DNA from: Prochloraceae cyanobacterium
GTDB taxonomy: Bacteria; Cyanobacteriota; Cyanobacteriia; Cyanobacteriales; JASJDA01
Length of the DNA: 64,000 nucleotides
NCBI GenBank assembly: GCA_030065755.1
Contig: JASJDA010000031.1
Span: 4,000 to 67,999 of the forward strand
Direction of reading: 5' to 3'
A model generated the notes under the pieces. The model did no database searches, was not told the DNA's origin, and saw only the letters and a list, made by a program, of their open reading frames with translations. This document shows, one piece after another, positions 2,432-62,024 of this stretch (position 1 is the stretch's first letter; the number at the start of each line of letters is the position of its first letter). Made by a program: the position numbers and the translations under genes.

Positions 2432-2571
2432 GCTATCTTACCTCCTTTTACCGCTTTCCTAATATCACCAGGTAATAGATTAACCTAGTTAGTGGTGCAG
2501 TTTACGATCGAGCCATAATGCTCAACGAACTGCGATAATTATTTAGTTAGAAAATCCCATCTTAAAAATAA

Positions 2572-4110
2572 ATGAAAGGCAAGTGGTTGAAGCGGTTAAT
2601 TTTGAGCGTGTTAACTATAGTGGCGATCGTCACAATAGTGCAGTCTCTGGGTGAGAGTTTTAGTAAGCCCCAATTTCAAACTCGTTTAGAACTATATCAA
2701 ACCGATCTAATCTTGCACGCAGCAGAGTATAAACTCGAAGACTCAGACGATGTCAGTAGCTCTTTGCAAGCAGCGATCGGTGACAATCCTTACTACAGTG
2801 CTGAAGAACAATATCAAAATGCCCTCCAAGCTGCTCAAATTAATCTTACTAATCTTCAAACCCAACTGCAACAACTCCCACTATCATCTAATATTGTCGA
2901 GCAACAGGCACAATTAGAAAGGGAAATTCAACAAGAAGAAAACTTTATTGACGAACTCAATCTAAAAATAGGAATCTTAGAAGTCGAACAAGGAAATATA
3001 GAAACAGCCCAAACAACTTGGAATCAATTAATTGAAAGCAATCAACAGCCAACAACTCAAACAGTAATTTCACAAACAGCTAGAGTTCTCCAAGACTTGT
3101 GGAGTGAATCTCCAACCTTATCTGAAGATAGTCGTTATTCGATCGTAGCTAATAATTTAGAGGGCTGGTTTCGCTATTACGCACTCAAACAACTCAATGG
3201 ATTACAAGCAAATGAAAGTGAGTTGTTAACTTTGGAAGCAACAGAACAAGAAATTGCCTCTCAAGCTATTTTTAAATTAGCTCTAATTGCTGGCGTTCCT
3301 TATTTATCAGGAGCTTTAGGAGTAATCCTATTAATATTTTTGCTAATTCAATTATTGCTTCAAAAAGAGCGCTCTATTTTAGCAATTAACAATAATTTTT
3401 CTTGGGAAACTCCTTGGGATGGGGAAACTGTTTGGCAAGTAATTATTATCGGCTTTTTCTCTGTAAGTCAAATAGTAATTCCCATATTGATTGGCATATC
3501 TGGGGTAAATCCTTCTGGTTTTAGTTTGCGTTTTAAAGCTTTGTATGTTTTAGTAACCTATTTACTCATGGCTGCTGGTGGGTTATTAGTACTGTATTTT
3601 TCGATTAAACCTTTCTTTCCTCTACCCAAAGACTGGTTTAAGTTTCAATGGCTTAGTAACTGGATTTTCTGGGGATTAGGGGGCTATTTAGTTGCCGTAC
3701 CTTTAGTGGTTTTAGTATCAATAATCAATCAACAATTTTGGCAAGGACAGGGTGGGAGTAATCCACTTTTATTTCTAGCTGTGCAAGCACAAGATAAAGT
3801 AGCCTTGGCGATCTTTTTCGTCACAGCATCGATCGCCGCACCAGTATTTGAAGAGATTATTTTTCGAGGCTTTTTGTTATCTTCTCTAACTCGATATATA
3901 CCTGTTTGGAGCGCGATTTTAGCCAGTAGCTTGCTATTTGCGATCGCTCACCTCAGTCTCTCAGAAGTCGCACCGCTGACTACTCTAGGAATTATTTTAG
4001 GGTTTGTTTATACGCGATCGCGCAACCTACTTTCTTCAATGCTGTTACACAGTCTTTGGAATGGGGGAACTTTATTTAGTTTGTTTATTTTAGGAAGTGG
4101 AGCGGGTTGA
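2572..4110 (+). CDS. CPBP (CAAX) family intramembrane glutamic endopeptidase with a long N-terminal coiled/TPR-like region
   Basis: The C-terminal multi-pass region carries the EEIIFRGF motif, FAIAH, and the HSLWN motif typical of the Abi/CPBP family. Confidence 0.8.
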   Translation: MKGKWLKRLILSVLTIVAIVTIVQSLGESFSKPQFQTRLELYQTDLILHAAEYKLEDSDDVSSSLQAAIGDNPYYSAEEQYQNALQAAQINLTNLQTQLQQLPLSSNIVEQQAQLEREIQQEENFIDELNLKIGILEVEQGNIETAQTTWNQLIESNQQPTTQTVISQTARVLQDLWSESPTLSEDSRYSIVANNLEGWFRYYALKQLNGLQANESELLTLEATEQEIASQAIFKLALIAGVPYLSGALGVILLIFLLIQLLLQKERSILAINNNFSWETPWDGETVWQVIIIGFFSVSQIVIPILIGISGVNPSGFSLRFKALYVLVTYLLMAAGGLLVLYFSIKPFFPLPKDWFKFQWLSNWIFWGLGGYLVAVPLVVLVSIINQQFWQGQGGSNPLLFLAVQAQDKVALAIFFVTASIAAPVFEEIIFRGFLLSSLTRYIPVWSAILASSLLFAIAHLSLSEVAPLTTLGIILGFVYTRSRNLLSSMLLHSLWNGGTLFSLFILGSGAG

Positions 4111-4208
4111 AAAATAATATATATCGTCAGAAATTTTGAATGGTAATTATGACGATCGACAATAAAATCATCGATCGTCTAAGTACGCATAAAGCGCTCT
4201 CTTCTGTT

Positions 4209-5675
4209 TTATGATTCGCTTGTCATACTTTGCTCTAATGACTGCTGCAAGCGAACTTTATCTAATCCTTTTTGAGAGAGTAACAACCAAGATTGAATTA
4301 AGTCTGGCCCTTGTAATTCTCCCATTAAAGCGGCACGAAGCGATCGCATGACTAAGCCTTTTTTGACTTTCGCTTGTTTGGTCACTTTTTTGACTATATC
4401 TTTAGCATCGTCTTGAGTGAGTTGAGAGTAACTTTCAATTGCTTCTTTTATGCTGGTGAGGATTTCTCCTACTCCTTCTTTTTGCAATTGCTCGATCGCG
4501 TCTTCGCTATATTCTAGTGACTCTCCCAACAGCAAGCGGCTTTCTTTTGGCGCGTCGCTCAAACGAGTTAAACTAGGGCCAATTAAAGCTGTCAAAGTTT
4601 CTAACCAGGGTCGATCGCTTTCTAAATCCACTTTATACCCTGCTTTTTGCCAGTAAGGAACTAACAATTCCACTAGCTTGTCTGCTGGCATATTATGAAT
4701 ATACTGAGAATTGATCCAATCTAATTTTGCCCAATCGAATTTTGCTCCTGCTTTGTTAACCCGATCGAGGTCAAATTTTTCTGCTGCTTGAGATAGGGTA
4801 AAAATTTCCTCGGTTGAGTCTGGTGGAGTCCAACCAAGCAAACTCATATAATTTGCCATTGCTTCTGGCAAAAATCCCATTTCTTTGAAGTCGTCAATGG
4901 ACGTAACTCCATCTCTTTTGGACAATTTCTGTCCTTTCTCATTCAAAATTAGGGGGGTGTGGGCAAATTCTGGCACTTTTGCCCCTAGCGCTTCGTAAAG
5001 TAGAATTTGTTTGGCAGTGTTAGCTATGTGGTCTTCTCCTCGGACGACGTGGGTAATTCCCATATCCGTGTCATCTACTACCACTGCTAGGTTATATAAT
5101 GGCTGACCGAATTCTGCTTCGGGGTTTTCTGCAGCGCGGGCTATGACCATATCGCCCCCTAGATCGCTAGCTTTCCAGGTTACTTTTCCCCTAACCAGAT
5201 CGTTCCATTCTATAAGCCTTTCGTCTTCTATTTTAAAGCGAATTACTGGTCTGCGTCCTTCGGCTACAAACGCTGCTTTTTCTTCTTCTGTGAGGTTGCG
5301 GTGGCGGTTGTCGTAGCGGGGGGCTTGCTTTCTAGCTTTTTGTGCCTCCCGCATCTGTTCTAATTCTTCTGACGTACAATAGCACCGATAGGCTAAGCCT
5401 TTATCTAATAATTGTTGAATTGCCTTTTTGTAGAGATCTAATCTGTTAGTTTGAAAAAATGGCCCTTCATCCCAATTTAAACCCAGCCAAGTGAGTCCCG
5501 ATTTGATGTTCTCAGTGTATTCTGGGCGCGATCGCTCCGTGTCCGTGTCTTCTATTCGCAGTATAAATTTACCGCCCTGGTGACGGGCAAACAGCCAGTT
5601 AAATACTGCTGTTCTCGCTGTTCCTATATGTAAATTTCCTGTTGGAGAAGGAGCAATGCGAACTCTTACCGTCAC
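4209..5675 (-). CDS. gltX: glutamate--tRNA ligase
   Basis: Class I aaRS HIGH-type motif ([12 protein letters not shown]) and KMSKS-type motif (KLSKR). Length and overall sequence are typical of GltX. Confidence 0.95.
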
Positions 5676-6174: not shown

Positions 6175-6362
6175 AATTTTTTATCCGCATCTCATCATAA
6201 CAACTATTCAATTTATTTGTCAAGTTTTTTTTTGTCAGAAGCGAAGGCCAATTTCGATCTTTCTTATGAAAACTTAAAAATACTATTTGGCGATCGTCAA
6301 TCCTCCATACTGAAGCGTTAGATTATCTATATTAATGTCGAAAGTAACCTCAAGGAGACTCT

Positions 6363-7154
6363 GTGCTGGAGTTATACCAATTCGAGCTGTCGCAATACTC
6401 AGAAAAGGTGCGCCTGATTCTAGACTACAAAGGACTAGAATACAAAAAAATAGAAGTAACTCCTGGTGTGGGACAAGTGGAAGTGTTTCGCCTCTCCGGT
6501 CAGTCCAAAGTGCCAGTTTTAAAGGATGGAGATACAGTCGTTGCTGATTCGACTGAAATTGCCTTTTATCTAGACCGCAAATACCCTGAAAAACCAATTA
6601 TTCCTACCGATCCCCTACAAAGAGGACTGTGCTTGTTAATGGAAGAATGGGCAGATGAATCCATCGGGATTAAGGGTCGTAAAGCTTTTTTGGGAGCATT
6701 GAACCAAAATCAGAACTTTCGCACTTCTATTTTGCCCCAAGAGACTCCCGATTTGCTCAAAAACTTAGTAGGTGCAGTCCCGTCTGAATTGCTTTATATT
6801 TTGGGAACTCCTCTCGGTTCGGGTCGGGATGCAGTTAAGGAAGCCCAAAGAGATATCAAACGAGATTTAGAAGCTCTCTGTCTAATTCTGACTGAACGTG
6901 CCCATCTAGTTGGCGGTCAAATTACTTTAGCAGATTTAGCTGTAGCTGGACTTAGTATTATTCTCAAGTTCCCAGCAGGTTCTTATCTGAATTTACCAAA
7001 AGAACTTCAAGGAAAAGGTATTCCTGGTTTGGCTGACAATAGTGCTTACGAGCCATTTTTCAACTGGCGCGATCGTCTTTATTCTGAGTATCGCAAGCCA
7101 TTGGCTTCTACTAGCACTTCAAATTCATCTCCTACTTCTATAGAAATCGAATAA
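6363..7154 (+). CDS. glutathione S-transferase family protein
   Basis: GTG start. The N-terminal thioredoxin-like GST fold is present (LELYQFELSQYSEKVRLIL...SKVPVLKDGD..ADSTEI), followed by a C-terminal helical domain. Confidence 0.75.
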   Translation: MLELYQFELSQYSEKVRLILDYKGLEYKKIEVTPGVGQVEVFRLSGQSKVPVLKDGDTVVADSTEIAFYLDRKYPEKPIIPTDPLQRGLCLLMEEWADESIGIKGRKAFLGALNQNQNFRTSILPQETPDLLKNLVGAVPSELLYILGTPLGSGRDAVKEAQRDIKRDLEALCLILTERAHLVGGQITLADLAVAGLSIILKFPAGSYLNLPKELQGKGIPGLADNSAYEPFFNWRDRLYSEYRKPLASTSTSNSSPTSIEIE

Positions 7155-47862: not shown

Positions 47863-50199
47863 ATGGTGCTGGTACGTCTAATTAAAAAACAACTTTGGCA
47901 GGATCGAAGTAATAAAACTAGACTAATTCTAGTAATAGTTTTATTGTGTCTAACCGTACGATCGCTACCCTATTTAGCCCCTATTAGCCCTAGGGATATA
48001 GAACAAGATCGACGGGCTATAGAATTTAGCGATCGCAACGGACTTCCCCTAGGTACTATACTCAGTCGCGATCGAAATCATACTGCTGTAGTTCCCCTCG
48101 ATCGAGTTTCTCCCCACTTCAAAAATGCTATTCTCGCAGCAGAAGACGGACGCTTTTACCACCACGGTGCATTAGAAATGGAAGCGATCGTGCGTGCAAT
48201 ATTTCTAGCTATTCAACACAAAAAAATTGTCAGTGGTGCTTCTACAATTACCATGCAACTAGCGCGAATGTTAGAACCAGCACCTCGCACACTTCCCAAC
48301 AAGATCGAAGAAATTTGGCGATCTTGGCGCTTAGTCGCAGGTATGAGCAAAGATGAGATACTTCATGCCTATATTAATCGATTGCCCATGGGAGGTAATA
48401 TATACGGAGTAGAAGCAGCATCCCGCGTTTATTTTGGCACACCTGCGGCTGAATTAAATATCGCTCGCTCGAGTCTACTAGCAGCCTTACCTAATAATCC
48501 TACTTATTTCAATCCTTACTATAACTGGGAACGGCTAAAACAACGACAGAAATACGTACTCGATCGCATGGTAGAAGATGGCTATATAACTCGCACCCAA
48601 GCAGATCTAGCCTATGCAGAAGAAATTACTCTTCAACCCCGCCAACAGGGAATTATAGCAGCACCTCACTTTTTATTCTGGCTAGCCGATCGACTTCCTC
48701 AAGATCGTCCTCCTCAGATACGCACCACCATCGATCGCTCCTTACAACAGTTTGTAGAAACTCAAGTAAAAGATATCGTCCGCACCCTCGCACCTCAAAA
48801 CGTCAGTCAAGCAGCAGTAGTAGTTATAGACAATCGTACCGGAGAAATATTAGCTTATGTTGGCTCGGTAGATTATTTTGCTCGAGGAGAATTAGGACGC
48901 AACGATGGAGTTCAATCTCTGCGTCAACCTGGTTCTACATTAAAACCTTTTCTCTATCAATTAGCCCTAGAAAAACGAATTATTCGCCCCAATACAGTTT
49001 TAGCTGACGTTCCCACCTATTACGCCATTCCTGGAGCCAAACTATACAGCCCTACAGATTATAGCGAAACCTTTGCAGGACCAGTAAGAGTTCGCATCGC
49101 CCTCGCCAATTCTTTAAACATTCCTGCAGTGCGAGTTTTAGAACGAGTTGGAGTAGATAAATTTCTCGATCGCCTGCACGAACTTGGTTTCGCAAACCTC
49201 GATCGAGCCCCAGAATACTACGGCTTAGGTTTATCTTTAGGTAGCGGCGAAGTCTCTCTCTGGGAATTAGCCCGTGCTTACCGCATTTTGGCACGAGAAG
49301 GGAAGATAACACCTACTATCACTACAATACCCCAATTTTCAGAATCAGGAACCCAAAACCTCTCCAAAAACTCCCCAACCTGGGGGCTAATTACCGATAT
49401 GTTAAGAGATCGTCACGCTCGTGCTTTAGCTTTTGGGGTTGACTCAGTTCTGAATTTACCTTTTCCCGTTGCAGTAAAAACAGGTACTTCCTCCAATTAC
49501 CGAGATACTTGGACAGTTGGCTACACTACTGACTACACCGTTGCTACCTGGGTCGGTAATTTCGATGGAAAACCCATGAAACAAGTTTCTGGGGTGGTGG
49601 GTGCAGCACCTCTGTGGCAGAGGATTATGTTACACTTGCACCAAGATTCTGAACCATCTGCTTTTTTTCCTCCTTCTAGGATGGTACAGCGTCCTATATG
49701 CGCCCTTTCAGGATTAAAACCCACTTCTGCTTGTCCTTCAGTAGTGCAGGAGTATTTTTATCGGGAAGACCTCAAAGATTACGAAAATAACCCAGATACT
49801 TTTTATGAAATAGTCGAGGGAAAATCTACTCAATATCGCCTCAATTTACCCCCAGAATACGACGAATGGCTAGCAATGCAACAGCGATCGACTTTTATTC
49901 CCAGTCAGCTTCAAATTTTATTTCCTCGTGACGGGGATCGTTTTTTAATAGATTCAGAAGGCGATACCACTTCGCAGTTAGAATTTAAAATTGCTGGAGC
50001 ATTAGAGTCGCCTTTAGAATTGTGGCTCAACGGCAAAAAATTAGCCACTAACTCCTCTAACTCTTTCTTTTGGGACTTGCGTCCTGGACAATGGACTCTA
50101 GAAGTGAAAAACGGTAGAGATAGCGATCGCCTTACTTTCTTTGTAGAATTAGCACCTAATCGAGCGACTCGTTGGGGTTTTTCCAGCGCCACTCCTTAA
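47863..50199 (+). CDS. pbpC: penicillin-binding protein 1C
   Basis: GT51 glycosyltransferase motif (AAEDGRFYHHG) and transpeptidase motifs STLKP and KTGTS. The C-terminal PBP1C-type extension brings the length to 778 aa. Confidence 0.88.
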   Translation: MVLVRLIKKQLWQDRSNKTRLILVIVLLCLTVRSLPYLAPISPRDIEQDRRAIEFSDRNGLPLGTILSRDRNHTAVVPLDRVSPHFKNAILAAEDGRFYHHGALEMEAIVRAIFLAIQHKKIVSGASTITMQLARMLEPAPRTLPNKIEEIWRSWRLVAGMSKDEILHAYINRLPMGGNIYGVEAASRVYFGTPAAELNIARSSLLAALPNNPTYFNPYYNWERLKQRQKYVLDRMVEDGYITRTQADLAYAEEITLQPRQQGIIAAPHFLFWLADRLPQDRPPQIRTTIDRSLQQFVETQVKDIVRTLAPQNVSQAAVVVIDNRTGEILAYVGSVDYFARGELGRNDGVQSLRQPGSTLKPFLYQLALEKRIIRPNTVLADVPTYYAIPGAKLYSPTDYSETFAGPVRVRIALANSLNIPAVRVLERVGVDKFLDRLHELGFANLDRAPEYYGLGLSLGSGEVSLWELARAYRILAREGKITPTITTIPQFSESGTQNLSKNSPTWGLITDMLRDRHARALAFGVDSVLNLPFPVAVKTGTSSNYRDTWTVGYTTDYTVATWVGNFDGKPMKQVSGVVGAAPLWQRIMLHLHQDSEPSAFFPPSRMVQRPICALSGLKPTSACPSVVQEYFYREDLKDYENNPDTFYEIVEGKSTQYRLNLPPEYDEWLAMQQRSTFIPSQLQILFPRDGDRFLIDSEGDTTSQLEFKIAGALESPLELWLNGKKLATNSSNSFFWDLRPGQWTLEVKNGRDSDRLTFFVELAPNRATRWGFSSATP

Positions 50200-50671
50200 A
50201 ATATATCTATTGCTAAATTTTTATTGATTTATATTTAGAATTTTTCCTAAGTTGAATTAATAAAATATAAACTACAGTTAAGAGCTAGGGGAGATTCTTA
50301 CATCCACTAAATAGAATTAGTTTAACTAATTAAAGTGGGTTGGTGTCAAGATATTTCGAGCTATATTGTTAAGAAAAAAAATCCAAAAAATATTAAACTA
50401 AGTAAGGTTAAAAATATTAAAAATAGAGATGTATTCGTATTTTCAACGTATCCCGATCGTTAATTAATAGTTTTTTAGAGAATGAGGAAGAATATAACAA
50501 AAAAAATTTTGTCTTTTTTCTAAAAACTAGAAAAGTTTATAAAAGTTGGAAAGAAAAACAAGTACGATATTAAAATTGCCAAAGGCGACGAAAAAAGAAT
50601 CTTCTATATAGAAAACATTAAAATAATTTAACGTCGCTTTGTCTAATTAACTCTCAAACTAATAAATTAAA

Positions 50672-52306
50672 GTGCCCATGAGTAAAGAAGTAAAAAATAT
50701 TACTAAAATACAAACTCGCCAGGAAAAAGAGCAAAGGTACGCACGAGAATATTCTCGTGCCAGAGAACGTGACGGAGAGAACTTAAGCGAAACAACTCGC
50801 GCTCGATTGTTCCAGCTACAACAAACATTAGGATTAGAAGATGGGGAGATAGCCTCAATAGAAGTAGAAATTACTGCTAGTTTTCGAGACTATCAAGAAA
50901 AATTGCAGCAATACGAACAGGCGTTGTTAGAAGCAACGAACAAAGAATTTCCTCTAAAAAAAGAAACTAGCGATCGATTGCAAAGATTTCAGAAATTTTT
51001 AAAACTTAGCGATAAAGATATTATTCCCCTTGAAGCCAGAATTATTGCTCAAAAACAACAAAGATATTTAGTAGAGATAGACACAGATAATAAAGAAAGC
51101 TTTAACGTCGCTCAACCTCAAGTAGAAAGAGATTTAGGGGCAGAAGATTCTTTTGAGATGGAAACCAATTCAGTTACTACAAGAGAGACTCTTTCCAAAC
51201 CAGAAGGACAAGTTACTTTTCTCTCAGCTTGGTTTGGCGCTGCTGTAGTAGCGATCGGCTTATTAGCCGGTGTATCTTGGTGGTTAATAGATAAACCGAA
51301 CTCTCCAAATAATCCATCTTCAATAGCTCTGAGCAAAGAAAATGGCAATATTAAAACATCTGTTCCTTCCTATACAGGACAGTATGACAAAGACTTTTTG
51401 AGCGTAAATAACGTACCTTCGGGAGAATTTGGCTATGGAGGGAGCGTCGCTTGGATGGAAATGTATAAAGTAATAGACCCCGCGATCGAAGCTGCAAGAC
51501 CGGAGTTTAAATTGCGCTACACTCTTCCTGAAAATGGCATTCCTAGCTCCAGTGCGGGTCTGCGCATGTTACTAGACGATCGAATAGCATTTGCTCATTC
51601 TTCTCGTCCCCTCCACGCTGACGAATATCAGAAAGCGTTAAAACTTGGCTATACTCTCAGCGAAATTACAGTAGCTTTAGAACCAATTGCGATCGTCGTC
51701 AATCCCAATTTAAACATTTCCGGTCTGACCCTGAGCCAATTAAAAGATATTTACACTGGTAAAATAACCAATTGGAATCAAGTTGGCGGTCCAAACCTAA
51801 AGATTATTCCCTATTCCTTTAACGCTAAAGATTCTGGCATAGCCGAGTTTTTCGAGCGCGATGTCATGGAGAGTCTTCCTTTTGGGAACAATGTTGTTTT
51901 CGTTCAGACAACTACCAATGCTTTGCGCGAGTTAGCAGCCAATCCTGGGGCTATTTACTATGCTTCAGCGCCAGAAGTAGTCGGTCAGTGCAGCATTAAA
52001 CTAGTGGCGATCGGTAACAATTCCGATCGATTAATTTCTCCCTATAGTGAGCCTCTCGTTCCAGCCTCCCAATGTCCAGAACGCCGCAATAAGATTAATA
52101 TGGCTGCCATGGAAACTGGTCAGTACCCAATCTTACAGCCCCTATTTGTGGCGGTTAAATATGACGGGAAAGTTAATCAACAAGCAGGTGAAGCATACGC
52201 TAATTTTATGTTGAGCGATCGAGGTCAGAAAATAATTAGACAAGCTGGGTTTATTCCCATTCGTTGTTTGTCTAAATTTATCGATAAATTAGACGCTTGT
52301 CACTAG
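50672..52306 (+). CDS. PstS-family (PBP_like_2) substrate-binding domain protein with an N-terminal repeat region and a TM anchor
   Basis: The C-terminal half resembles phosphate-binding protein folds (GGSVAW..., GLRMLLDDRIAFAHSSRPL, ITNWNQVGG). The N-terminus holds two similar L..L.L.D.DI..(I/L)E..I segments and one TM helix. GTG at 50672 or ATG at 50678. Confidence 0.65.
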   Translation: MPMSKEVKNITKIQTRQEKEQRYAREYSRARERDGENLSETTRARLFQLQQTLGLEDGEIASIEVEITASFRDYQEKLQQYEQALLEATNKEFPLKKETSDRLQRFQKFLKLSDKDIIPLEARIIAQKQQRYLVEIDTDNKESFNVAQPQVERDLGAEDSFEMETNSVTTRETLSKPEGQVTFLSAWFGAAVVAIGLLAGVSWWLIDKPNSPNNPSSIALSKENGNIKTSVPSYTGQYDKDFLSVNNVPSGEFGYGGSVAWMEMYKVIDPAIEAARPEFKLRYTLPENGIPSSSAGLRMLLDDRIAFAHSSRPLHADEYQKALKLGYTLSEITVALEPIAIVVNPNLNISGLTLSQLKDIYTGKITNWNQVGGPNLKIIPYSFNAKDSGIAEFFERDVMESLPFGNNVVFVQTTTNALRELAANPGAIYYASAPEVVGQCSIKLVAIGNNSDRLISPYSEPLVPASQCPERRNKINMAAMETGQYPILQPLFVAVKYDGKVNQQAGEAYANFMLSDRGQKIIRQAGFIPIRCLSKFIDKLDACH

Positions 52307-52360
52307 CCTCATTAGGAAATTTTAGTTGCATTCGATGTGATTTGAATAAAAATTCTGGGC

Positions 52361-52425
52361 AATCTAGGTATTAAGAGTGAAACATTTAGGTATTAAGAGT
52401 GAAAAATCGCCCAAATACCTAGATT
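52361..52425. promoter_or_regulatory. operator-like repeat cluster upstream of the three-gene operon
   Basis: The direct repeat TAGGTATTAAGAGTGAAA occurs at 52365-52382 and 52387-52404. A perfect 12-bp inverted pair is AATCTAGGTATT (52361-52372) and AATACCTAGATT (52414-52425). The cluster ends 22 nt before the ATG at 52448. Confidence 0.4.
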
Positions 52426-52447
52426 TATTTAACCCAGAATTAAAACA

Positions 52448-53128
52448 ATGTCAATACAAATAGAAGCTAAAAAGCAAACTCGTCTTTTACTAAATTTGTG
52501 GAATTTAGGTGGAATTGAAAAGGAAGTTAAATTAGGAGAACTTAACAAGCAAGTAAAACTGAATAAAGAAAAGGCAAAAGACTATCAAAAAATATACGAT
52601 CGATTAGAAAAAGAAGAAGCGATCGCCCTGACAAAGAAAGGTAACTCTACAAAAGTTTCTTTGACAAATAAGGGTTTGCAAATGTTAGATGCTGGAATTA
52701 AAAGTCCAGACTTTAAGTATAAGCCTACGCAAAAAGTTAGAACCAAAGATTTTAACGCTTTATTAAAGTGGATCGAGCATTTAGATATTGCAGTGAGTCC
52801 TAATAATCCTAATAATGGGAATACTAACGGCAAGCAAAGCGAAATAGTTTCTTACGAAGAATTTAAACAAGTAGCCTTGGATGTTTACGAAAAGCTAAAT
52901 AAAGGCTATAACTACGACGATTTAGTACCAATTTATCGCATCAGAAGAGAAATTGGGGAAAAGGTCGATCGAATTCAGTTTAATGAATGGCTGTTAGAAA
53001 TGCAAGCTAACGATATTTTCCAGCTTATGGAAGGTAGTGTCGAAGATAGCGCTCCAGATAAGATTGAAGATTCGATTACTACTGAACTTAGCGGACTGCG
53101 CTGTTATGCAAAGCGTTTAGTTGCATAG
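52448..53128 (+). CDS. hypothetical protein, two predicted winged-helix-like modules (gene A of the candidate system)
   Basis: The N-terminus (LLLNLWNLGG...IALTKKGNSTKVSLTNKGLQML) and the C-terminus (VPIYRIRREIGEKVDRIQFNEWLLEMQANDIFQLMEG) both look like wHTH DNA-binding modules. They are separated by an N/P-rich linker. This is inference only. Confidence 0.55.
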   Translation: MSIQIEAKKQTRLLLNLWNLGGIEKEVKLGELNKQVKLNKEKAKDYQKIYDRLEKEEAIALTKKGNSTKVSLTNKGLQMLDAGIKSPDFKYKPTQKVRTKDFNALLKWIEHLDIAVSPNNPNNGNTNGKQSEIVSYEEFKQVALDVYEKLNKGYNYDDLVPIYRIRREIGEKVDRIQFNEWLLEMQANDIFQLMEGSVEDSAPDKIEDSITTELSGLRCYAKRLVA

Positions 53129-53186
53129 ACGCAACACAACTATTTTTGCACATTTTATTCACTTAGAGAAACTTTTTGCCAAGACC

Positions 53187-54986
53187 ATGACTTTTTCTCC
53201 ATCTCAAATTCAAGACAAACAATTAGAAAATATTATTAAAAATTGTAATCCCTTCGATCGAGAAGTAATTGTTACAAAACAAGCTATTTGGAAAGAATCA
53301 TTTCCCGATGTTCCTTCTATTAATGCTGCTGCTTCCGATGCCGTTTTTAAGGCGATCGATAACGTTAGTAATGGACATCGTAAAGTTATAGGTATAACTC
53401 ATAGGGCTGAAAGAGGAGTAGGAAAAAGCCACATTATCAGTCGCATTCGCAGTCACATTAAAACTGAAGGTAATGCCTTTTTTGTTTATATGGGCGAATA
53501 TAGCGATTTAGATAAAATAAAACTCGAATTCCTCAATATTTTATGTGCAAGCCTCAAACAAGAAGGTTTTCAAGGAGTTATGCAATGGCAAGAATTAGCG
53601 GCTGCTTTGGTCAATGAAGCACTAGATAAAAAATATAACCTTCAAACGATACTTGAAGTTTTTCCTAATTGGTTTAAACAAACAAAACATAACTTAGTTA
53701 ATCAATTAACTCAACAAATTCTTGAGATTAAGTCTGACATCGAAGATCCCGATCTAATAACAGCAATTGTTTGCACACTTCACCCAACTTATAAAGCTTT
53801 TGCGATCAAGTGGCTTTCTGGCAAAAGTTTAACCACATCGAAAGCTGAAGAAATGGGATTACCTAATCCTAGTGAAGAGGAAAGAGAAGCTGAATGTTTT
53901 AGTAAAATTTGTCAGATTCTAGATGTAATTAGCAATTATAAAACAATAGTAATCTGTTTTGACGAACTAGATAGTACTGATTATTCTGAAAGTGGTTTTA
54001 CTAGGGCGCAGATAGTAGCTAGTTTCATTAAAGATTTATATAACAACATTAAACGGGGTGTTTTTCTAACAAGTATGTACCCTCAAACTTGGAGTAATCA
54101 TATTAATTCTTTACCACAAGCAGAAGCAGTTGTCGATCGCATTGGCTCACACATCATTGACCTCAAATATCTTAATTCTAATGACGTATTGACTTTAGTT
54201 TCTTGTTATTTAAAAGAGTTTTATACCGAACAAGGATTAACACCTCCTCATTCAGTTTATCCTTTTACAGAGACTCAATTAAGAACACTAGGGACAGAAA
54301 GACCCACCGTTAGAAAGGTTTTAAATTGGTGTAAGGATAAATGGAGGTCAGGTCCAATAATAGATCCACGTAAATTAGCTTATAACAATGAGCTTCAAAA
54401 TATTGAAGCAGATTTTATGGAGGATAAAGCAAAATTAGCGAAAGCAATGATTTTTGCTTTTAATAGAATAATTGGACAAAAAGTAGAAGGGGTTCAAGTA
54501 GAAAAAATTGAAACTATCCTAGAGCCTTACAATGAATATATAAACTTCAAAATTATTGGAAAAGAAAAAGGAAAAACTGTCAAAATTGGTGTGGCAATAA
54601 TGCAATCTTCCAATGGCAACAGGATTGGGGCTTGTTTAAGACATTTAAGTCAATATCAGATATACGATCTGACCCGCGGTTGTTTGGTTCGTTCTACAAG
54701 AATTAATCCTACTTCAAGAGTAGCCCGTCAAAGATTAAATGTACTTTTAAATGAAAAACGAGGAGCATGGGTCTTATTAAAAGAAGAACAAGTTAGACCT
54801 TTGATTGCCATTTATGCTGTTTATAGTGCTAGAGAAAATTATGAGTTAAGTGATCGAGAGATTTTTGAGTTTATATCTCAAAAAAAATTAGCATTAGATA
54901 ATCCTTTACTAAAAGAAATTTTGAGTAATACTTGCGGAAAAATACCTGAAAATGCAGATGATGAAGATATAGTTTATGGAAGCTAA
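53187..54986 (+). CDS. P-loop NTPase (STAND/ORC-like AAA-type), gene B of the candidate system
   Basis: Walker A AERGVGKS is at 53406-53429 and Walker B IVICFDELD at 53946-53972. The track ORF starts at an alternative TTG at 53121, overlapping gene A. The ATG at 53187 is chosen here. Confidence 0.7.
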   Translation: MTFSPSQIQDKQLENIIKNCNPFDREVIVTKQAIWKESFPDVPSINAAASDAVFKAIDNVSNGHRKVIGITHRAERGVGKSHIISRIRSHIKTEGNAFFVYMGEYSDLDKIKLEFLNILCASLKQEGFQGVMQWQELAAALVNEALDKKYNLQTILEVFPNWFKQTKHNLVNQLTQQILEIKSDIEDPDLITAIVCTLHPTYKAFAIKWLSGKSLTTSKAEEMGLPNPSEEEREAECFSKICQILDVISNYKTIVICFDELDSTDYSESGFTRAQIVASFIKDLYNNIKRGVFLTSMYPQTWSNHINSLPQAEAVVDRIGSHIIDLKYLNSNDVLTLVSCYLKEFYTEQGLTPPHSVYPFTETQLRTLGTERPTVRKVLNWCKDKWRSGPIIDPRKLAYNNELQNIEADFMEDKAKLAKAMIFAFNRIIGQKVEGVQVEKIETILEPYNEYINFKIIGKEKGKTVKIGVAIMQSSNGNRIGACLRHLSQYQIYDLTRGCLVRSTRINPTSRVARQRLNVLLNEKRGAWVLLKEEQVRPLIAIYAVYSARENYELSDREIFEFISQKKLALDNPLLKEILSNTCGKIPENADDEDIVYGS

Positions 54987-55009
54987 TTGATTTAAGGAAT
55001 ACAAGACAA

Positions 55010-56479
55010 ATGGATAATAATAGATCTATTTCCATTGCTACAGCTTTACGCTTACCAGCACCAGATATAACAGCATTAATAGAAGGTCGATCGCTGGTAG
55101 CTATATCTCGCATTTTTATCAACCCAGAAAAAACATTTGCTCTTTATCCCAGCGATACTTCTAGTAATGCTTTACCTAACCAACAATATTATCGTCCTAA
55201 TTTTCTCGATACAGCAGAAAAAGCGATCGCAGAGTTGAATGACCATACTGTTGACATTAAAGCATGGGCGAAGTGCTATAAATGTGAAATTATTAACCAA
55301 GAAGATAAGGATAGTTTTGAGATCCTGTCTCAGCTTACAGTCTGGACTGAGGATGCTTGGGAAAAAACTATATCCCAACGAGGACATATATTTTTAACTT
55401 ACCTCAGAGTGTATCCTTTACCCGAAATACTCAATATCCCTGTTTCTTCTAACTCTCGCTTCGTCTCCTTACCAATACCGATCGCACTCAGCCAAATAAA
55501 CCCAATATTAAGCGATCTCACTTTCGATCGACGCAGTCATGAGTTAGAAAACCGCATCCCACCAAAACATCCAGAATTAGAACAACTAATAAGTGGTCTT
55601 GCTCCTCTTTCAGATAATAACCTGGGTGCTAAACAACTCGATCGCAATATAAGAAACTTTCTCGGTTGGAATAATAAACAGTCCGAGTCAAATATAGACC
55701 CCGATCTAATCTGGATAGAAAGAATAGCTACAGTTGGAAACTCTAGCGACGGTAACGAGTTTGAAAAATTAGTAAGAAAAGGTTTAATTAAGTTAGGTTT
55801 TGGCAACTATAATACCAATCCTAAAGCAAGTCTCGATCCTGAAGCTACTGGAGGGGCTGGAGGAATAGATTTCTATTGCGAAACTCCTTATCCAGTAGTA
55901 GGAGAATGTAAAGCAACCCAAACAGAAACAGTCCCCAGTAGCACACCAGGACAACTAATTCAATTAGGTAACAATCATCTGGGTAGAGAGAAATACGATC
56001 GCTGTCTCAAATTAATTGTAGCGGCTGGCAGACTAACACAAGATGCACAACTTACGGCTATGAACAATCAAATAAGTGTAATTCGTCCCGAAACTTTGCA
56101 AAAATTAGTAGAAATGCAAGCAAAATATCGAAACTCGATCGATCTTTTCAAACTTAAAGAATGCTTGCAAGATGCTTATGGTTTAGCCGACGATCGAGTA
56201 GAAGAATATTTAAGAGACATCAGTCAAGAAATTGAAATAAGATCGCACATAGTCAAAGTTGTTAAAAATTATTTAGAAAATACTCAATCTAAGGATGTCG
56301 TGCTAGAAGCCATACATGGAGCTTTTGTTAATTCCAACCCACCCAAACCTTTAAACAGAGAAGAAATAAAAGACATTTTAATCGAATTATCTTCACCGCT
56401 AGCAGGATATTTAGGACGCAAAAGAGGAAGAAATGGAGCCGATCGCTTTTATTTTTTGCGAGATTTATCGATTAATTAG
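55010..56479 (+). CDS. DUF1802-like N-terminal domain fused to an Mrr-type PD-(D/E)xK restriction-endonuclease-like domain (gene C of the candidate system)
   Basis: The C-terminal half has NEFEKLVRKGLIKLGF...GGAGGIDFYCE...VVGECKA. The Asp is at 55868-55870 and E-C-K at 55904-55912. This is the Mrr_cat signature. The N-terminal ALRLPAPDITALIEGRSLVAISR...FALYPS...IFLTYLRVYPLP pattern recalls DUF1802. Confidence 0.7.
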   Translation: MDNNRSISIATALRLPAPDITALIEGRSLVAISRIFINPEKTFALYPSDTSSNALPNQQYYRPNFLDTAEKAIAELNDHTVDIKAWAKCYKCEIINQEDKDSFEILSQLTVWTEDAWEKTISQRGHIFLTYLRVYPLPEILNIPVSSNSRFVSLPIPIALSQINPILSDLTFDRRSHELENRIPPKHPELEQLISGLAPLSDNNLGAKQLDRNIRNFLGWNNKQSESNIDPDLIWIERIATVGNSSDGNEFEKLVRKGLIKLGFGNYNTNPKASLDPEATGGAGGIDFYCETPYPVVGECKATQTETVPSSTPGQLIQLGNNHLGREKYDRCLKLIVAAGRLTQDAQLTAMNNQISVIRPETLQKLVEMQAKYRNSIDLFKLKECLQDAYGLADDRVEEYLRDISQEIEIRSHIVKVVKNYLENTQSKDVVLEAIHGAFVNSNPPKPLNREEIKDILIELSSPLAGYLGRKRGRNGADRFYFLRDLSIN

Positions 56480-56483
56480 GAGT

Positions 56484-56588
56484 CAGGGAACAGAGAACAG
56501 TGCTAGTTTTTAGGCTATTTATACCCCGCATAAGACTTAAAACGTGCGATCGATCTATCTGTTCCCTGTTGCCTATTCCCTGTTCCCC
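56484..56588. terminator. long-range inverted STRR-type repeat between convergent genes
   Basis: CAGGGAACAG (56484-56493) pairs perfectly with CTGTTCCCTG (56559-56568). Further CCCTGTT/CCTATTC units extend to 56588. It lies between the gene C stop and the cobK stop. Confidence 0.5.
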
Positions 56589-56595
56589 TTAATTT

Positions 56596-57330
56596 TCAGT
56601 TTCCAATTATCCATTTAAAAGCACTGTCAACATCAGTAACGCGATCGCCTTCTGGCATTATGGGACGTTTAATGATGACTGCAGGTAAACCCAGTTCTCT
56701 AGCAGCAATTATCTTGGCAATTGTTGCTTCACCACCGCTATTTTTGCTAACAATTGCCTCGATCTGGTATTTTTTTAACAACTGGCGCTCTTCTGTTAAA
56801 TCAAAAGGGCCTCTTTCCAATAATAAATGTCCCTTGGGAATTGGTTTATCGGATGCTGGAGGTTCGATCGTTCGCATCAGAAACCAAATATCCTCTAAAT
56901 AACTAAAAGCAGCTAATTCTTGTCTGCCAATAGCCAGAAAGACTCGCTTTGCCAAACCTGGAAGTACGGCTACAGCAGCTTTAAAGTCATTTACTTCAAT
57001 CCAGCGATCGCCTTTTATTGGTTGCCATGGGGGACGCACTAACATTAAATGGGGAATACCACAGATTTTTGCTGCTATAGCCCCATTAAAGGAAATTTGT
57101 GCTGCAAAAGGATGGGTCGCGTCAATAAGTAGAGCGATCGCATTATTTCGTAGATAAGTCACTAAGCCTTCTGTTCCGCTAAAACCTCCTATTCTAGTGG
57201 GTACGTGAATCTTGGCTGGCTGACTAGTTCTACCTGCTAGAGAAACAATAACTTCTATTCCCTCAATAGTTGAAGCTTTAACAGCTAATTGAGAAGCCTC
57301 TGTGGTTCCACCCAAGATTAAAACTCGCAT
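56596..57330 (-). CDS. cobK: precorrin-6A / cobalt-precorrin-6A reductase
   Basis: MRVLILGGTTEA start, a length of 244 aa, and a CobK/CbiJ-like sequence throughout. Confidence 0.85.
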   Translation of the reverse strand: MRVLILGGTTEASQLAVKASTIEGIEVIVSLAGRTSQPAKIHVPTRIGGFSGTEGLVTYLRNNAIALLIDATHPFAAQISFNGAIAAKICGIPHLMLVRPPWQPIKGDRWIEVNDFKAAVAVLPGLAKRVFLAIGRQELAAFSYLEDIWFLMRTIEPPASDKPIPKGHLLLERGPFDLTEERQLLKKYQIEAIVSKNSGGEATIAKIIAARELGLPAVIIKRPIMPEGDRVTDVDSAFKWIIGN

Positions 57331-57339
57331 TATTTATCT

Positions 57340-58757
57340 TCTTCCCGCGAGAATACCCACGCTTTCAGCGTGTGGATGAATCGCAGGGCAGCCCTTTTAG
57401 TATTATCTTTAATCTTACAGAAAGCTATGTTAAAATGTAAGTTGTAAATAACTAACTATTGTAAGGGATGTTTTTTATTTTTAATTAGGGAACCCTTTTT
57501 CAAATAATTATTTTCCGTAAATGACCGAACGCGCCTACAAATATCGGTTTTACCCAACTCCAGAGCAAGAAAATCTCTTGCGACGGACGATAGGTTGCGT
57601 TCGTTTGGTTTACAACAAAGCTTTGGCAACTAGAACTGAAGCATGGTACTCCAAAAAAGAGAGGGTCGGCTACAAAGAAACCTCTAGTTTTTTGACTGCT
57701 TGGAAAAAGACTACTGAACTTAACTTTCTTAACGAGGTAAGCTCTGTACCCTTGCAGCAATGCCTTAGAAATCTGCAAAAAGCATTTGCTAACTTCTGGG
57801 GAAAGAGAGCTAGATATCCTCGGTTTAAGAAAAAGCGCTCGGGGGGGTCGGCTGAGTTTACCAAGTCTGCATTTAAATGGAAAGATGGTAAATTGTGGCT
57901 TGCTAAGTGTAAGGAACCACTCAATATAGTCTGGTCTAGATATTTGCCTGATGCTTGTGCCCCATCTACAGTAACAGTCAAATTCGAGCCATCGGGAAGA
58001 TGGTATATTTCTTTGCTGATAAATGACCGAACCATTGAGAAATTCCCACCAACTGACAAGAAAGTTGGCATTGATGTAGGTATTTCTCGATTGATTAGTA
58101 CCAGCGACGGGGATTTGATAGCTAATCCCAAGCATTTCAATCGGCTGTATCAAAAGCTTAAAAGAGCGCAAAAGGTATTGAGTCGGAAGACCAAAGGCTC
58201 TAATAATCGACATAAAGCGCTACAGATAGTAGCTAAGATACACACTCAAATCAAAGATGCTCGTACCGATTTCCTGCACAAGTTGACTACTTCGTTGGTT
58301 AGAGAAAATAGCCTTATTGCTATTGAAGACTTGGGGGTTAGAAACATGGTTAAACTCCGCAAGTTGGCTCGGTCTATATCCGATGCTGCTTGGGGGGAGA
58401 TGTTTCGTCAACTTGAGTATAAGTGTGAGTGGTACGGGCGAGAATTGGTTAAAATTGACCGATTCTATCCCAGCAGTAAAAGATGTAATCAATGTGGTTT
58501 TGTAGTCGCTCGATTGCCCCTCGACGTTCGCAGTTGGGATTGCCCTAGCTGTGGAACTACAGGCATAGACCGCGACATCAATGCTGGAAAAAATATCTTG
58601 GCTGCAGGGCTTGCAGTTTCTGTCTGTGGAGCGGACATAAGACCTGATAACCATAGTGTTAAAGGGCAGTTGCGAAAAACTCGTACATCGAGAAGGAAAC
58701 AGAAACCCAGATCGTGAGGTTTGGGAATCCCGCGTCAAGGAGCGCGGGAGGATGTCA
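57340..58757 (+). mobile_element. IS200/IS605-family tnpB-only element (IS1341-like), 1418 bp by inferred boundaries
   Basis: The left end has a subterminal hairpin CCACGC-TTTCA-GCGTGTGG followed by GATGAATCGC. The right end is GAATCCCGCG-TCAAGGAG-CGCGGGAGGATGTCA (58725-58757). Boundaries were set by comparison with the 21325-21791 copy. No tnpA is present. Confidence 0.7.
57521..58717 (+). CDS. tnpB: RNA-guided DNA endonuclease TnpB (IS605 OrfB family)
   Basis: N-terminal YKYRFYPTPEQENLLRRTIGCVRLVYN (OrfB HTH). The RuvC triad contexts are GIDVGI, IAIEDL and DRDINAGKNI. The zinc ribbon is CNQCG...CPSCG. Confidence 0.92.
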   Translation: MTERAYKYRFYPTPEQENLLRRTIGCVRLVYNKALATRTEAWYSKKERVGYKETSSFLTAWKKTTELNFLNEVSSVPLQQCLRNLQKAFANFWGKRARYPRFKKKRSGGSAEFTKSAFKWKDGKLWLAKCKEPLNIVWSRYLPDACAPSTVTVKFEPSGRWYISLLINDRTIEKFPPTDKKVGIDVGISRLISTSDGDLIANPKHFNRLYQKLKRAQKVLSRKTKGSNNRHKALQIVAKIHTQIKDARTDFLHKLTTSLVRENSLIAIEDLGVRNMVKLRKLARSISDAAWGEMFRQLEYKCEWYGRELVKIDRFYPSSKRCNQCGFVVARLPLDVRSWDCPSCGTTGIDRDINAGKNILAAGLAVSVCGADIRPDNHSVKGQLRKTRTSRRKQKPRS

Positions 58758-60245: not shown

Positions 60246-62024
60246 TTGAATTTAGGACGAGATATGTTGTGGATTGGAAGAGATAGGATTGAAAACAAAC
60301 TGCAGTCAACACCTATAATTCGGTGTTCTTGTTCTATTTGCCGCGCTACTAATCAAAGCAATAATTTTAATTCGTTGGAGTCAGGAAAAAAATCATTTTC
60401 CAATCGATCGCCAACAGGCAATATTTACGTTGACGGTATTCTCTGGGGAGGACATAATTGGCTTGTTAATTCCAATCGAGTTATTACTTATTCATTCTGG
60501 GGTAATAGTGTTCGATATCGTAGAAATTGGAAATCTCATGAAATTTCTGCCATGGAGCAAGCATTACGCACTTGGTCTAATGTAGCTAATATTAAGTTTG
60601 TCAAAACAAGGAACAATAACCCTAATGCCACACTTAAATTTCATTTAATTGACAACTCTTTCGAGTTCCCAATATTGGGAATGTTTTATCCTCCAGGCAC
60701 CAAAAACGAAGGTAACGGCTATTTCAATTTCCAAGGATATGGTTGGAATCAAGCAGGTTTGAAACAAGGTGGATATGGTTTTACCACCCTCCTTCACGAA
60801 CTAGGTCACGGATTGGGATTGGCTCATCCTCACGATAAAGGTGGTGGTTCTTTTATCTACCCTAGGGTTACTTATGAATATAGTACTGGCAATTTTGGAC
60901 TCAACCAAGGCGTGTGGACAACCATGTCCTATAACGATGGTTTAGTATCCAATAATTTGCCCTTAGCAAGTAATTATGGATATCAAGGAACGCCAATGGC
61001 GTTTGATATTGCTGCTGTTCAGTATCTCTATGGTGCAAACAAAAACTACCGCATTGGCAACAATACTTATACTTTACCTTCAAAAAACAGGTCTGGTAGT
61101 TTCTATTCTGCCATCTGGGATACTGGCGGTATAGATACAATTACCGCTGCAGGAATTAATAGGGCGGTTAATATTGACTTACGCCAAGCACCTTTAAAAG
61201 GAAAAAATGCTGGAGGTTATATTTCTTCTGTATTCGGTATTAATGGTGGCTACACCATAGCTAACCGAGTCACAATCGAAAAAGCGATTGGCGGCTTTAT
61301 GAACGATCGGCTCATAGGCAACATAGCAAATAATGTTCTTTTTGGCGGTAATGGCAATGATTTTCTGAATGGAGGCGGTGGCAAAGATCGCTTACTTGGA
61401 GGTAGAGGTAGGGACATTCTTAAAGGAGGTCTTGATAATGACATTATCAATGGGGGCGATGATAATGACATTATGAATGGCGAAGCTGGTAATGATACTT
61501 TCATTGTTAACAGCAGGTTCGATCGAGTCCTAGAATCTGTCAGAGGTGGTATCGATCGTGTAATTTCTTCTGCTCGTATTTATACTATCAGCGCTAACAT
61601 AGAAAATTTAACTCTCAGCGCTCGAGCTATTATTGGGAGCGGCAATAGTAAGAACAATCGTATTAACGGCAATAGGTACAGTAACAAACTTATTGGCCAA
61701 GCTGGCGATGATACTCTCAATGGGGGGGCTGGGAACGATCGCCTTGTCGGAGGTGCTGGAGCTGACGTTCTTGTGGGTGGAACTGGAGCCGATCGCTTTG
61801 TCTTCAATTCAATCTCAGAAAAAATTGATATTATTTCAGACTTTAATAGAGGTCAAAGAGATAAAATTTCCATCTTCCATAAAAGTTTTGGAGCAACTTC
61901 TACTAATCAATTTAACTTCAACGCAGCTAATGGCGCTCTCTTGTTTAGGGGACAGCAAATAGCTACTTTGGAAAATATTAATGAGTCTGGATTTAATGTT
62001 TCTACTGATATTGTATTGCTCTAA
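60246..62024 (+). CDS. serralysin-like (M10B) zinc metalloprotease with RTX calcium-binding repeats
   Basis: The zinc motif is HELGHGLGLAHPHD. A Met-turn region follows, then multiple GGxGxD nonapeptide repeats (GGNGNDFLNGGGGKDRLLGGRGRDILKGG..., GGAGNDRLVGGAGADVLVGGTGADRF). The start may be the ATG at 60264. Confidence 0.8.
   Translation: MNLGRDMLWIGRDRIENKLQSTPIIRCSCSICRATNQSNNFNSLESGKKSFSNRSPTGNIYVDGILWGGHNWLVNSNRVITYSFWGNSVRYRRNWKSHEISAMEQALRTWSNVANIKFVKTRNNNPNATLKFHLIDNSFEFPILGMFYPPGTKNEGNGYFNFQGYGWNQAGLKQGGYGFTTLLHELGHGLGLAHPHDKGGGSFIYPRVTYEYSTGNFGLNQGVWTTMSYNDGLVSNNLPLASNYGYQGTPMAFDIAAVQYLYGANKNYRIGNNTYTLPSKNRSGSFYSAIWDTGGIDTITAAGINRAVNIDLRQAPLKGKNAGGYISSVFGINGGYTIANRVTIEKAIGGFMNDRLIGNIANNVLFGGNGNDFLNGGGGKDRLLGGRGRDILKGGLDNDIINGGDDNDIMNGEAGNDTFIVNSRFDRVLESVRGGIDRVISSARIYTISANIENLTLSARAIIGSGNSKNNRINGNRYSNKLIGQAGDDTLNGGAGNDRLVGGAGADVLVGGTGADRFVFNSISEKIDIISDFNRGQRDKISIFHKSFGATSTNQFNFNAANGALLFRGQQIATLENINESGFNVSTDIVLL

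Follow-up and report, generated by a model that had tools for sequence, protein, structure and literature searches.

A conserved cyanobacterial gene trio as a putative NTPase-coupled restriction-like system outside the named families

Introduction

Modification-dependent restriction enzymes are known to be built by fusing a reader to a nuclease (PMC6765204, PMC12707154, PMC7641849). In the MspJI family (type IV / IIM), an N-terminal reader-like β-barrel of the PUA superfamily precedes an Mrr-like PD-(D/E)xK domain, and Escherichia coli Mrr combines an Mrr_cat domain bearing the D…ExK signature with winged-helix DNA binding. McrBC, which restricts modified DNA, pairs a nucleoside triphosphatase (NTPase) with a PD-(D/E)xK nuclease that is licensed by its AAA+ partner. 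In BREX and RADAR, the ATPases BrxC and RdrA assemble into rings and act as switches controlling an effector. Here we analyse a stretch of 64,000 nucleotides (the window throughout) from a Prochloraceae cyanobacterium (assembly GCA_030065755.1, contig JASJDA010000031.1, positions 4,000 to 67,999 of the forward strand), which contains three adjacent genes, A, B and C, encoding a candidate DNA-binding protein, a predicted ATPase and a protein with a nuclease domain. An earlier note, made from the letters of the window, had put this trio forward as a candidate undescribed system; we file it as an NTPase-coupled restriction-like system that lies outside every named family and has not previously been described.

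Protein C shares with MspJI the arrangement of a reader-like barrel followed by a nuclease, but the two have no sequence similarity, and the structural match reaches a Foldseek E-value of only 5e-3 with a low global TM-score. The predicted reader of C is ASCH-like whereas that of MspJI is SRA-like, C has an additional C-terminal winged helix, and MspJI acts alone whereas C is encoded together with an ATPase and a DNA-binding protein. The pairing of NTPase and nuclease recalls McrBC; however, B resembles ORC/Cdc6 proteins and carries neither the MNxxDR nor the NTAD motif of the McrB GTPase signature, the putative reader sits on the nuclease in the trio and on the NTPase in McrBC, the trio has a third subunit, A, and it is matched by no PADLOC type IV model. 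With E. coli Mrr, protein C has in common the nuclease domain and the winged helix, but the window protein falls below the Pfam cut-off for Mrr_cat (E 0.018; 15.6 bits, cut-off 21), its domain order differs, and it adds DUF1802 as well as the ATPase and adaptor partners.

The model of B matches BrxC and RdrA, but the partners of these switches are PglX/PglZ in BREX and a deaminase in RADAR, B is much smaller (599 aa), and there is no sequence-level PADLOC match. Two further families resemble B in its P-loop region (residues 95-311) in NCBIfam searches, namely gene 1 of DS-41 (NF053860, E 1.4e-8) and the Sll1717 family (NF047389, E 4.4e-8). DS-41 is an anti-phage system from DefensePredictor that was validated experimentally in E. 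coli (PMC13092281). Only the NTPase core aligns in either case, with scores far below the cut-offs (34.2 bits against 370 for NF053860; 32.7 bits against 75 for NF047389), and neither family has a counterpart of A or C.

In PADLOC-DB 2.0.0, no family matched B or C at E ≤1, the systems covered including Septu, Gabija, Lamassu, PARIS, Menshen and Shango as well as BREX, DISARM and RADAR; for A, the only match was a chance-level alignment of the winged helix to a CARF model. No NCBIfam model reached its cut-off for A, B or C. Literature searches, confined to the full text of papers, returned none on DUF1802 in such a role or on the trio; neither Sll1717 and the protein accessions nor the topics of ASCH/Mrr conflict systems and cyanobacterial defence led to an account of it. 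The claim of the earlier note that the trio matches no named system is supported by these model and literature searches.

The defence repertoire of filamentous cyanobacteria, an ecologically important group in which genetic manipulation is difficult, is still poorly charted.

Gene linkage and distribution

A scan of one genome per species across 185,579 species genomes gave 516 matching stretches; the census rests on the best 80 loci. These are cyanobacterial, with Nostoc, Microcoleus, Coleofasciculus, Calothrix, Oscillatoria and Stigonema among the hosts. One locus (L058) is labelled as a metagenome-assembled genome of Acetobacteraceae, yet it has a Nostoc-type gene order around the trio, and its contig is probably mis-binned. 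Between 1500 and 2000 relatives were detectable per protein, the named ones being nearly all cyanobacterial and bearing generic names only. An exhaustive search of 1.84 billion representatives retrieved only 241 clusters related to C, which indicates that the C family is small.

The order and orientation A-B-C are kept in 66 of the 73 loci that extend far enough upstream (64 counted by script, plus L023 and L081, where A and B overlap by a few bases). Clustering of the flanking open reading frames (ORFs) from the 80 loci revealed no fourth gene common to different lineages. Whole trios stand in tandem in L031, L040 and L048, and Oscillatoria sp. PCC 10802 (L046) has three copies. Across orders, identity is 50-60% for A and C. 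Some second copies have diverged strongly (identities of 31-43% for A, 27-29% for B and 35-37% for C) and are still whole trios, which indicates that the trio is the unit of duplication.

Three proteins of ~895 aa (P0384, P0498 and P0508) consist of B, a linker, the nuclease of C and the C-terminal domain of C, without DUF1802, and gene A lies directly 5′ of the fusion gene in two of the three fusion loci. These architectures are strong evidence for joint action of B and the nuclease. Other proteins carry the nuclease module of C after a ParB-like or a TPR N-terminus, so the module behaves as a transferable effector. The earlier note had let its proposal depend on the three genes occurring together elsewhere, and this is what their colinearity, their duplication as whole trios and the fusions of B with C establish. 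A-B-C is a genuine conserved unit of cyanobacteria, mostly of filamentous hosts.

Reduced forms were found alongside the complete trios. B is truncated in L049 and L054. In L020, an in-frame chimera of 185 aa (6362-6919) fuses ~75 N-terminal residues of A with ~110 C-terminal residues of B and is followed by an intact C; it retains TRGCLVRS and EILSDPSG of B and represents a copy in decay or else a minimal form. Separately, a Uma2-family gene lies between B and C in L006 (7348-7992) and in L074, so the B-C junction of the operon tolerates insertion.

Predicted protein architecture

In its AlphaFold2 model (pLDDT, the predicted local distance difference test score, 85.9; ~86-93 over residues 10-160), protein C consists of a PUA/ASCH-like DUF1802 domain, an Mrr-type PD-(D/E)xK nuclease and a helical and winged-helix end. 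The Pfam family DUF1802 aligns at 98.8 bits (cut-off 25) over profile positions 1-173 of 174 and matches all 49 of 49 C homologues; within this domain, Y61, W86, W112 and C89/C92 are invariant and Y135 is near-invariant. Foldseek with the C model returned the ASCH structures 5guq and 5gus (probability 1.0, target-normalised TM 0.5-0.58) together with the ASCH domain of TRIP4 bound to double-stranded DNA (dsDNA), these matches together spanning probabilities of 0.96-1.0 and target-normalised TM values of 0.42-0.58. A viral structure library independently returned Mrr-domain and ASCH-domain proteins. On the strength of the model, DUF1802 of C is predicted to be a PUA/ASCH-like β-barrel, with no link to ASCH at the sequence level.

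The nuclease domain of the model has the α-β-β-β-α-β core of PD-(D/E)xK enzymes. Its catalytic residues, D287 and E299-x-K301 (55862-55912), lie in GIDFYCE (285-291) and GECK (298-301); D287 is invariant among the C homologues, and E299 and K301 are present in at least 90% of them. The earlier note had read an unmistakable Mrr-like core from these motifs, and the intact D…ExK signature upholds it; Mrr_cat is weak in the window protein but matches 46 of the 49 family members (best E 2.3e-6). MspJI was the top match to the C model in the Protein Data Bank (PDB), and AF1548 was also matched; a profile of C matched nothing among PDB sequences. The C-terminal winged helix of the model was matched by Foldseek to the C-terminal winged helix of Cdt1, the ORC winged helix, Fur and Zalpha.

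The AlphaFold2 model of B (pLDDT 86.4; predicted TM-score, pTM, 0.72) shows an AAA+ ATPase core, a helical lid, a C-terminal α/β domain and an acidic tail at the end. Foldseek matched it to archaeal Cdc6/Orc1 (2qby_A, E 5.6e-5; 1w5s and 1w5t, probability 1.0) and also returned ORC subunits, RdrA (8hr8, E 2.8e-4) and BrxC (9zll, E 1.7e-3). By its predicted structure, B is an ORC/Cdc6-like AAA+ ATPase. The earlier note had described B as a protein of about 600 aa with Walker A and Walker B motifs and some 270 aa of C-terminal sequence; the protein has 599 aa, and both motifs were located and are conserved. Together with GIDFYCE and GECK of C, AERGVGKS and IVICFDELD of B were all found in the translated proteins. 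Transmembrane helices inserted in the NTPase domain are a common feature of KAP proteins. The Pfam family KAP_NTPase passes its cut-off on the window protein (26.8 bits, cut-off 20), and most B homologues carry AAA_16, AAA_22 or no Pfam match instead. B has no transmembrane segment, its maximum 19-residue Kyte-Doolittle hydropathy (1.15) being too low.

The C-terminal domain of B has the order α-β-β-β-α-β-α-β, and may resemble a restriction-endonuclease fold in the model. It contains no D…ExK motif, is matched by no Pfam family, and gave no signal of kinship with the nuclease of C in hhalign; MspJI appeared only at rank 50 among the Foldseek matches of B. The C-terminus is α/β, not the winged-helix DNA-binding domain expected of the ORC/Cdc6 clade. 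It holds the invariant TRGCLVRS (residues 496-503, 54672-54695), which is one of the motifs common to all B types, the others being an N-terminal NPF…W, Walker A and Walker B, YPF (358-360) and a near-C-terminal EILSxPSG. A profile of B against the PDB weakly matched YTHDF1 in its YTH domain, at E 0.005, along B 188-261 (53748-53970), a region that includes the Walker B strand; this match was judged to be most likely due to chance.

In protein A, a variable linker rich in N and P (117-130) connects a winged-helix-like region (~10-85) to a C-terminal domain that is conserved (~135-226). All of its 1763 homologues are unnamed or labelled 'predicted transcriptional regulator' or PadR. The Pfam family DUF6293_C matches the N-terminal region in 18 of 26 members (best E 1.7e-5), and a profile of A against the PDB gave MarR at E 0.075 only; these matches weakly suggest that A carries an N-terminal winged helix. 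The C-terminal half is strongly conserved, yet it matched nothing in Pfam or PDB profile searches, and hhalign comparison of all domains of A, B and C found no internal duplication in A. Of the two winged helices that the earlier note had assigned to A, the first has weak support and the second found none in these searches.

Exchange of the B cassette

B proteins group into at least three deeply separated classes that cut across taxonomy. Two Coleofasciculus loci with different B classes (L004 and L010) are 86% identical in A and 92% in C but only 39% in B, and Nostoc pairs of different B class have identities of 81-83% in A, 42-44% in B and 72-79% in C. At the DNA level, L004 and L010 are 84-100% identical through most of A, ~50% identical from ~130 nt before the end of A through all of B, and again 79-97% identical from the start of C. 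Among trio pairs whose C proteins are at least 70% identical, 127 pairs differ in B class, with mean identities of 79% for A, 43% for B and 78% for C.

The last ~35 residues of A change together with B. A GGS…LRCYA form accompanies B class 2 (29-30 of 31 trios), and a GE(M/I)xD…LR(Y/S)YA form accompanies B classes 3 and 4 in all 30 trios, of which 27 fit the pattern and 3 were assigned by eye. Since the form of the tail matches the class of B, we read the tail as contacting B. Taken together, the alignments indicate a swappable cassette made up of B and the ~40 final codons of A, and it is as such a cassette that the B classes persist or are exchanged.

Same-class B proteins from different orders are 49-62% identical, a divergence close to that of A and C, whereas different-class B proteins within one genus are 39-46% identical. 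The B classes are therefore older than the orders. Because B types are swapped while C stays constant, we read B as the specificity part, under diversifying or balancing selection, and C as the constant effector. A tentative extension of this reading, which we hold to be a good deal less probable than not, is that long-term balancing selection acts on the trio as a locus of immunity or self-recognition in multicellular cyanobacteria, with the cassette setting the target on which C is released. At least three versions of B with matching A tails would then predate the split of Nostocales, Coleofasciculaceae and Microcoleaceae and would have been exchanged inside a vertically inherited A…C frame. 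If so, the locus would be a bacterial counterpart of the trans-species polymorphism seen at eukaryotic immune and het loci, and the cassette may provide a bacterial case in which such lasting selection is readily studied. Swapping of B and the A tail around a constant nuclease is also a natural experiment on how an immune complex divides specificity from effector function.

Proposed mechanism and alternative explanations

Domain logic and the evolutionary pattern suggest a role in defence. The similarity of B to gene 1 of DS-41, the low GC content of the trio and the GmrSD gene that takes the place of A and B in L056 (below) also speak for it. On balance we consider it probable, if only slightly so, that the trio encodes one ATP-controlled restriction-like nuclease complex, found in cyanobacteria only and most likely directed against foreign or abnormal nucleic acid. 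In the model that we propose, C would be the effector: its PUA/ASCH-like DUF1802 would read a base modification or another nucleic-acid feature, its Mrr-type PD-(D/E)xK domain would cut, and its winged helix would help to hold the DNA. B would be the switch, sensor and specificity subunit, which binds ATP, probably assembles on a cue and licenses C, so that cutting would depend on ATP. A would act as a DNA-binding adaptor or regulator whose C-terminal tail contacts B and thereby tethers it. Alternatively, DUF1802 could serve to dock C onto B and not as a reader.

Were the proposal of a restriction-like complex correct, strains such as Nostoc punctiforme would possess a lineage-wide chromosomal barrier to phage and to DNA transfer. 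DUF1802, a Pfam domain without a function, would gain a testable role as a PUA/ASCH-like reader or docking domain.

Several results weigh against this proposal. Neither B nor C is matched in PADLOC. The trio is inherited vertically at one site per lineage, and no homologue of C was found on 72,556 plasmids, in 50,697 phage genomes or in the IMG/VR contigs, a pattern unusual for defence systems (B gave two weak partial matches to exonuclease genes on plasmids). No association with defence islands was seen, the neighbours in the window and in Nostocales being housekeeping genes. Co-location with known defence genes, which the earlier note had envisaged, was observed in L056 only, where a GmrSD type IV restriction gene (Pfam GmrSD_N 1.7e-37, GmrSD_C 9e-22) and a HicB-like gene occupy the A-B position (2269-4754) directly 5′ of an intact C. 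C stands alone, without A and B, in L056, L065 and L082, and may therefore not need them. The E-values behind the ASCH assignment are modest (5e-3 to 2e-2) and derive from a predicted structure, and ASCH domains may alternatively bind RNA or be enzymes. Finally, the fusions of B with the nuclease lack DUF1802, so this domain may serve for docking and not for reading.

A rival explanation is a housekeeping function. The trio could be a DNA-metabolism module of large-genome, polyploid filamentous cyanobacteria, in which an ORC-like loader and a structure-specific nuclease act in repair, replication restart or chromosome upkeep. Such a module would account for the resemblance of B to replication initiators, for the conservation of A and C across orders, for the restriction to chromosomes that the searches with C indicate, and for the fixed synteny among housekeeping genes. 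In Nostocales, there is one conserved site between a Fpg/NdhO/Ldh block and a Nif11-PGI block (PGI flanks the trio in 29 loci and Fpg in 26), and Microcoleus and Coleofasciculus each have a conserved site of their own; the 'variable slot' that the earlier note had proposed as the location of the trio is thus replaced, in these other lineages, by one fixed site per lineage. However, deeply divergent B types are exchanged between A and C genes that are nearly identical, some trios are duplicated in tandem and some copies have decayed, the distribution is patchy (only the 516 stretches in all species genomes scanned), and the nuclease module has been recombined with TPR or ParB-like heads. These four features are more in keeping with an accessory gene of conflict than with a core function, and we regard a housekeeping role as unlikely.

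The exchange of B types could also mark a polymorphic self/non-self or addiction locus, comparable to fungal het loci or to a toxin-antitoxin pair and not to a phage sensor. The B types with their matching A tails would then define compatibility groups, and a mismatch would release the nuclease. This accords with B types that predate the orders and coexist within genera (the 127 pairs above), with an A tail that co-varies with B, and with hosts that are mostly multicellular. Against it, no gene for secretion or contact delivery is linked to the trio, C alone is tolerated, which argues against a simple toxin, and an immune sensor under balancing selection predicts the identical pattern. We consider a compatibility locus improbable, somewhat more so than a housekeeping module.

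A less probable alternative again is an RNA-directed system, in which the ASCH-like domain would bind RNA or a modified ribonucleoside and the nuclease would degrade RNA or trigger abortive infection. Among the closest single-domain structural matches of C is a Zymomonas ASCH protein, which is reported, as cited in PMC7641849, to be a ribonuclease specific for single-stranded RNA. ASCH domains have a historical link to RNA, but the ASCH domain of TRIP4, which was matched as well, binds dsDNA, and the winged helices of A and C together with the ORC-like B point to DNA. To our knowledge, Mrr-type PD-(D/E)xK domains have proved to be DNA nucleases in every characterised case.

That the trio is cargo or machinery of a transposon or integrative element, or a plasmid replication module, as the earlier note had allowed, is effectively refuted: an ATPase beside a PD-(D/E)xK protein superficially recalls TnsC/TnsA of Tn7, and a TnpB gene lies 1 kb downstream in the window, but this gene lies on the far side of cobK and shows no conserved link with the trio, none of the 80 loci has a linked transposase, integrase or pair of terminal repeats, the neighbours are housekeeping genes, each lineage keeps the same chromosomal site, and C has no homologue in the plasmid, phage and viral-contig collections.

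Locus organisation and flanking elements

Table 1. Positions of the trio, its domains and its flanking repeats in the window
Feature	Residues	Positions	Strand	Basis or remark
Nested palindrome holding a 22-nt tandem repeat		52351-52441	+	Inverted-repeat search and folding
Gene A		52448-53128	+	ORF, 226 aa
A C-terminal tail GSVEDSAPDK…LRCYAKRL		53033-53125	+	Co-varies with B type; within swapped cassette
Gene B		53187-54986	+	ORF, 599 aa, ATG start
B Walker A AERGVGKS	74-81	53406-53429	+	G77, G79, K80 conserved in at least 95% of trios
B Walker B IVICFDELD	254-262	53946-53972	+	C257, F258, D259 conserved in at least 95% of trios
B C-terminal α/β domain	414-547	54426-54827	+	Secondary structure of model
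Gene C		55010-56479	+	ORF, 489 aa
C DUF1802 domain	12-177	55043-55540	+	Pfam PF08819, E 4e-28
C Mrr-type PD-(D/E)xK nuclease (predicted)	232-372	55703-56125	+	Mrr_cat in relatives, model topology
C helical and winged-helix domain (predicted)	379-489	56144-56476	+	Foldseek; invariant ELSSPLxGYLGR motif
Imperfect inverted repeats, heptamer-like units		56477-56587	.	Repeat search; between C and cobK

The three genes lie on the same strand, and an ORF check reproduced the coordinates and gap sizes first given for them (Table 1). All three proteins are 100% identical to those of a metagenome-assembled contig of a Prochloraceae cyanobacterium. The gap between A and B is 58 nt with the ATG start and would become an 8-nt overlap if B began at TTG 53121. 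The N-termini of B homologues align to the ATG at 53187, and the deposited B protein has 599 aa, so B starts at 53187; the TTG has no homologue support. The gap between B and C is 23 nt. The trio is AT-rich, as had been judged by eye: its GC content is 0.350 compared to 0.401 for the whole window. The trio has a lower GC content than its flanks in 58 of 58 loci, with B the lowest of the three genes.

Upstream of A, a 22-nt unit occurs twice (52362-52405) within nested inverted repeats of ~90 nt, the 3′ end of which is 7 nt upstream of the ATG of A. An 18-mer core of this repeat has 2 copies compared to 0.09 expected by chance, and the palindrome folds into a very stable hairpin (-28.1 kcal/mol, z -5.9). 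No counterpart was found 5′ of gene A in 60 other loci, which marks the repeat as a local feature of this genome. The operator-like repeat described in the earlier note is real, but it does not represent a conserved operator; the palindrome may be a structured leader or translational control hairpin, or a small inserted element. Rfam gave no match over window positions 50000-58000.

A k-mer search of the other loci picked out only one conserved element, of ~40 nt, AACGCCGAAATATTCAGCAATTTCTCGGTTATTTTTT, which stands ~88 nt upstream of gene A in otherwise diverged intergenic DNA. It is carried by L001, L018, L028, L038 and ~17 further loci of the Nostoc lineage. The element showed no significant folding, and is a candidate promoter or operator of the operon in this lineage.

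Downstream of C, the repeat arms are 15-18 nt long, 82-87% complementary and 63-72 nt apart. The inverted repeats reported there are present, but a terminator consensus scan made no call and the fold reaches a z of only -2.0, so their reading as a terminator is not supported. The convergent cobK that was said to follow does so (56596-57330, Pfam CbiJ 4e-70).

In the window, genes for PBP1C and a PBP_like_2 protein lie upstream of the trio, and genes for CobK, a lone TnpB, CbiD and an RTX metalloprotease lie downstream. The TnpB/IS605 OrfB-type gene (57521-58717, + strand) is situated between cobK and cbiD, where it interrupts the cobalamin cluster; its product matches Pfam HTH_OrfB_IS605, OrfB_IS605 and Cas12f1-like_TNB, and no TnpA gene is adjacent. 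Also within the cob cluster, a 592-aa protein (60246-62024, + strand) combines a serralysin-like Peptidase_M10 domain with RTX calcium-binding repeats.

In Nostocales (L017, L022, L038, L043, L047 and others), the interval between C and PGI holds a pair of small genes, repeated up to three times. One member of the pair encodes ~120 aa with a weak match to retropepsin-like aspartyl proteases (E 9e-4), and the other ~105 aa without a match; the pair resembles an expanding two-gene cassette.

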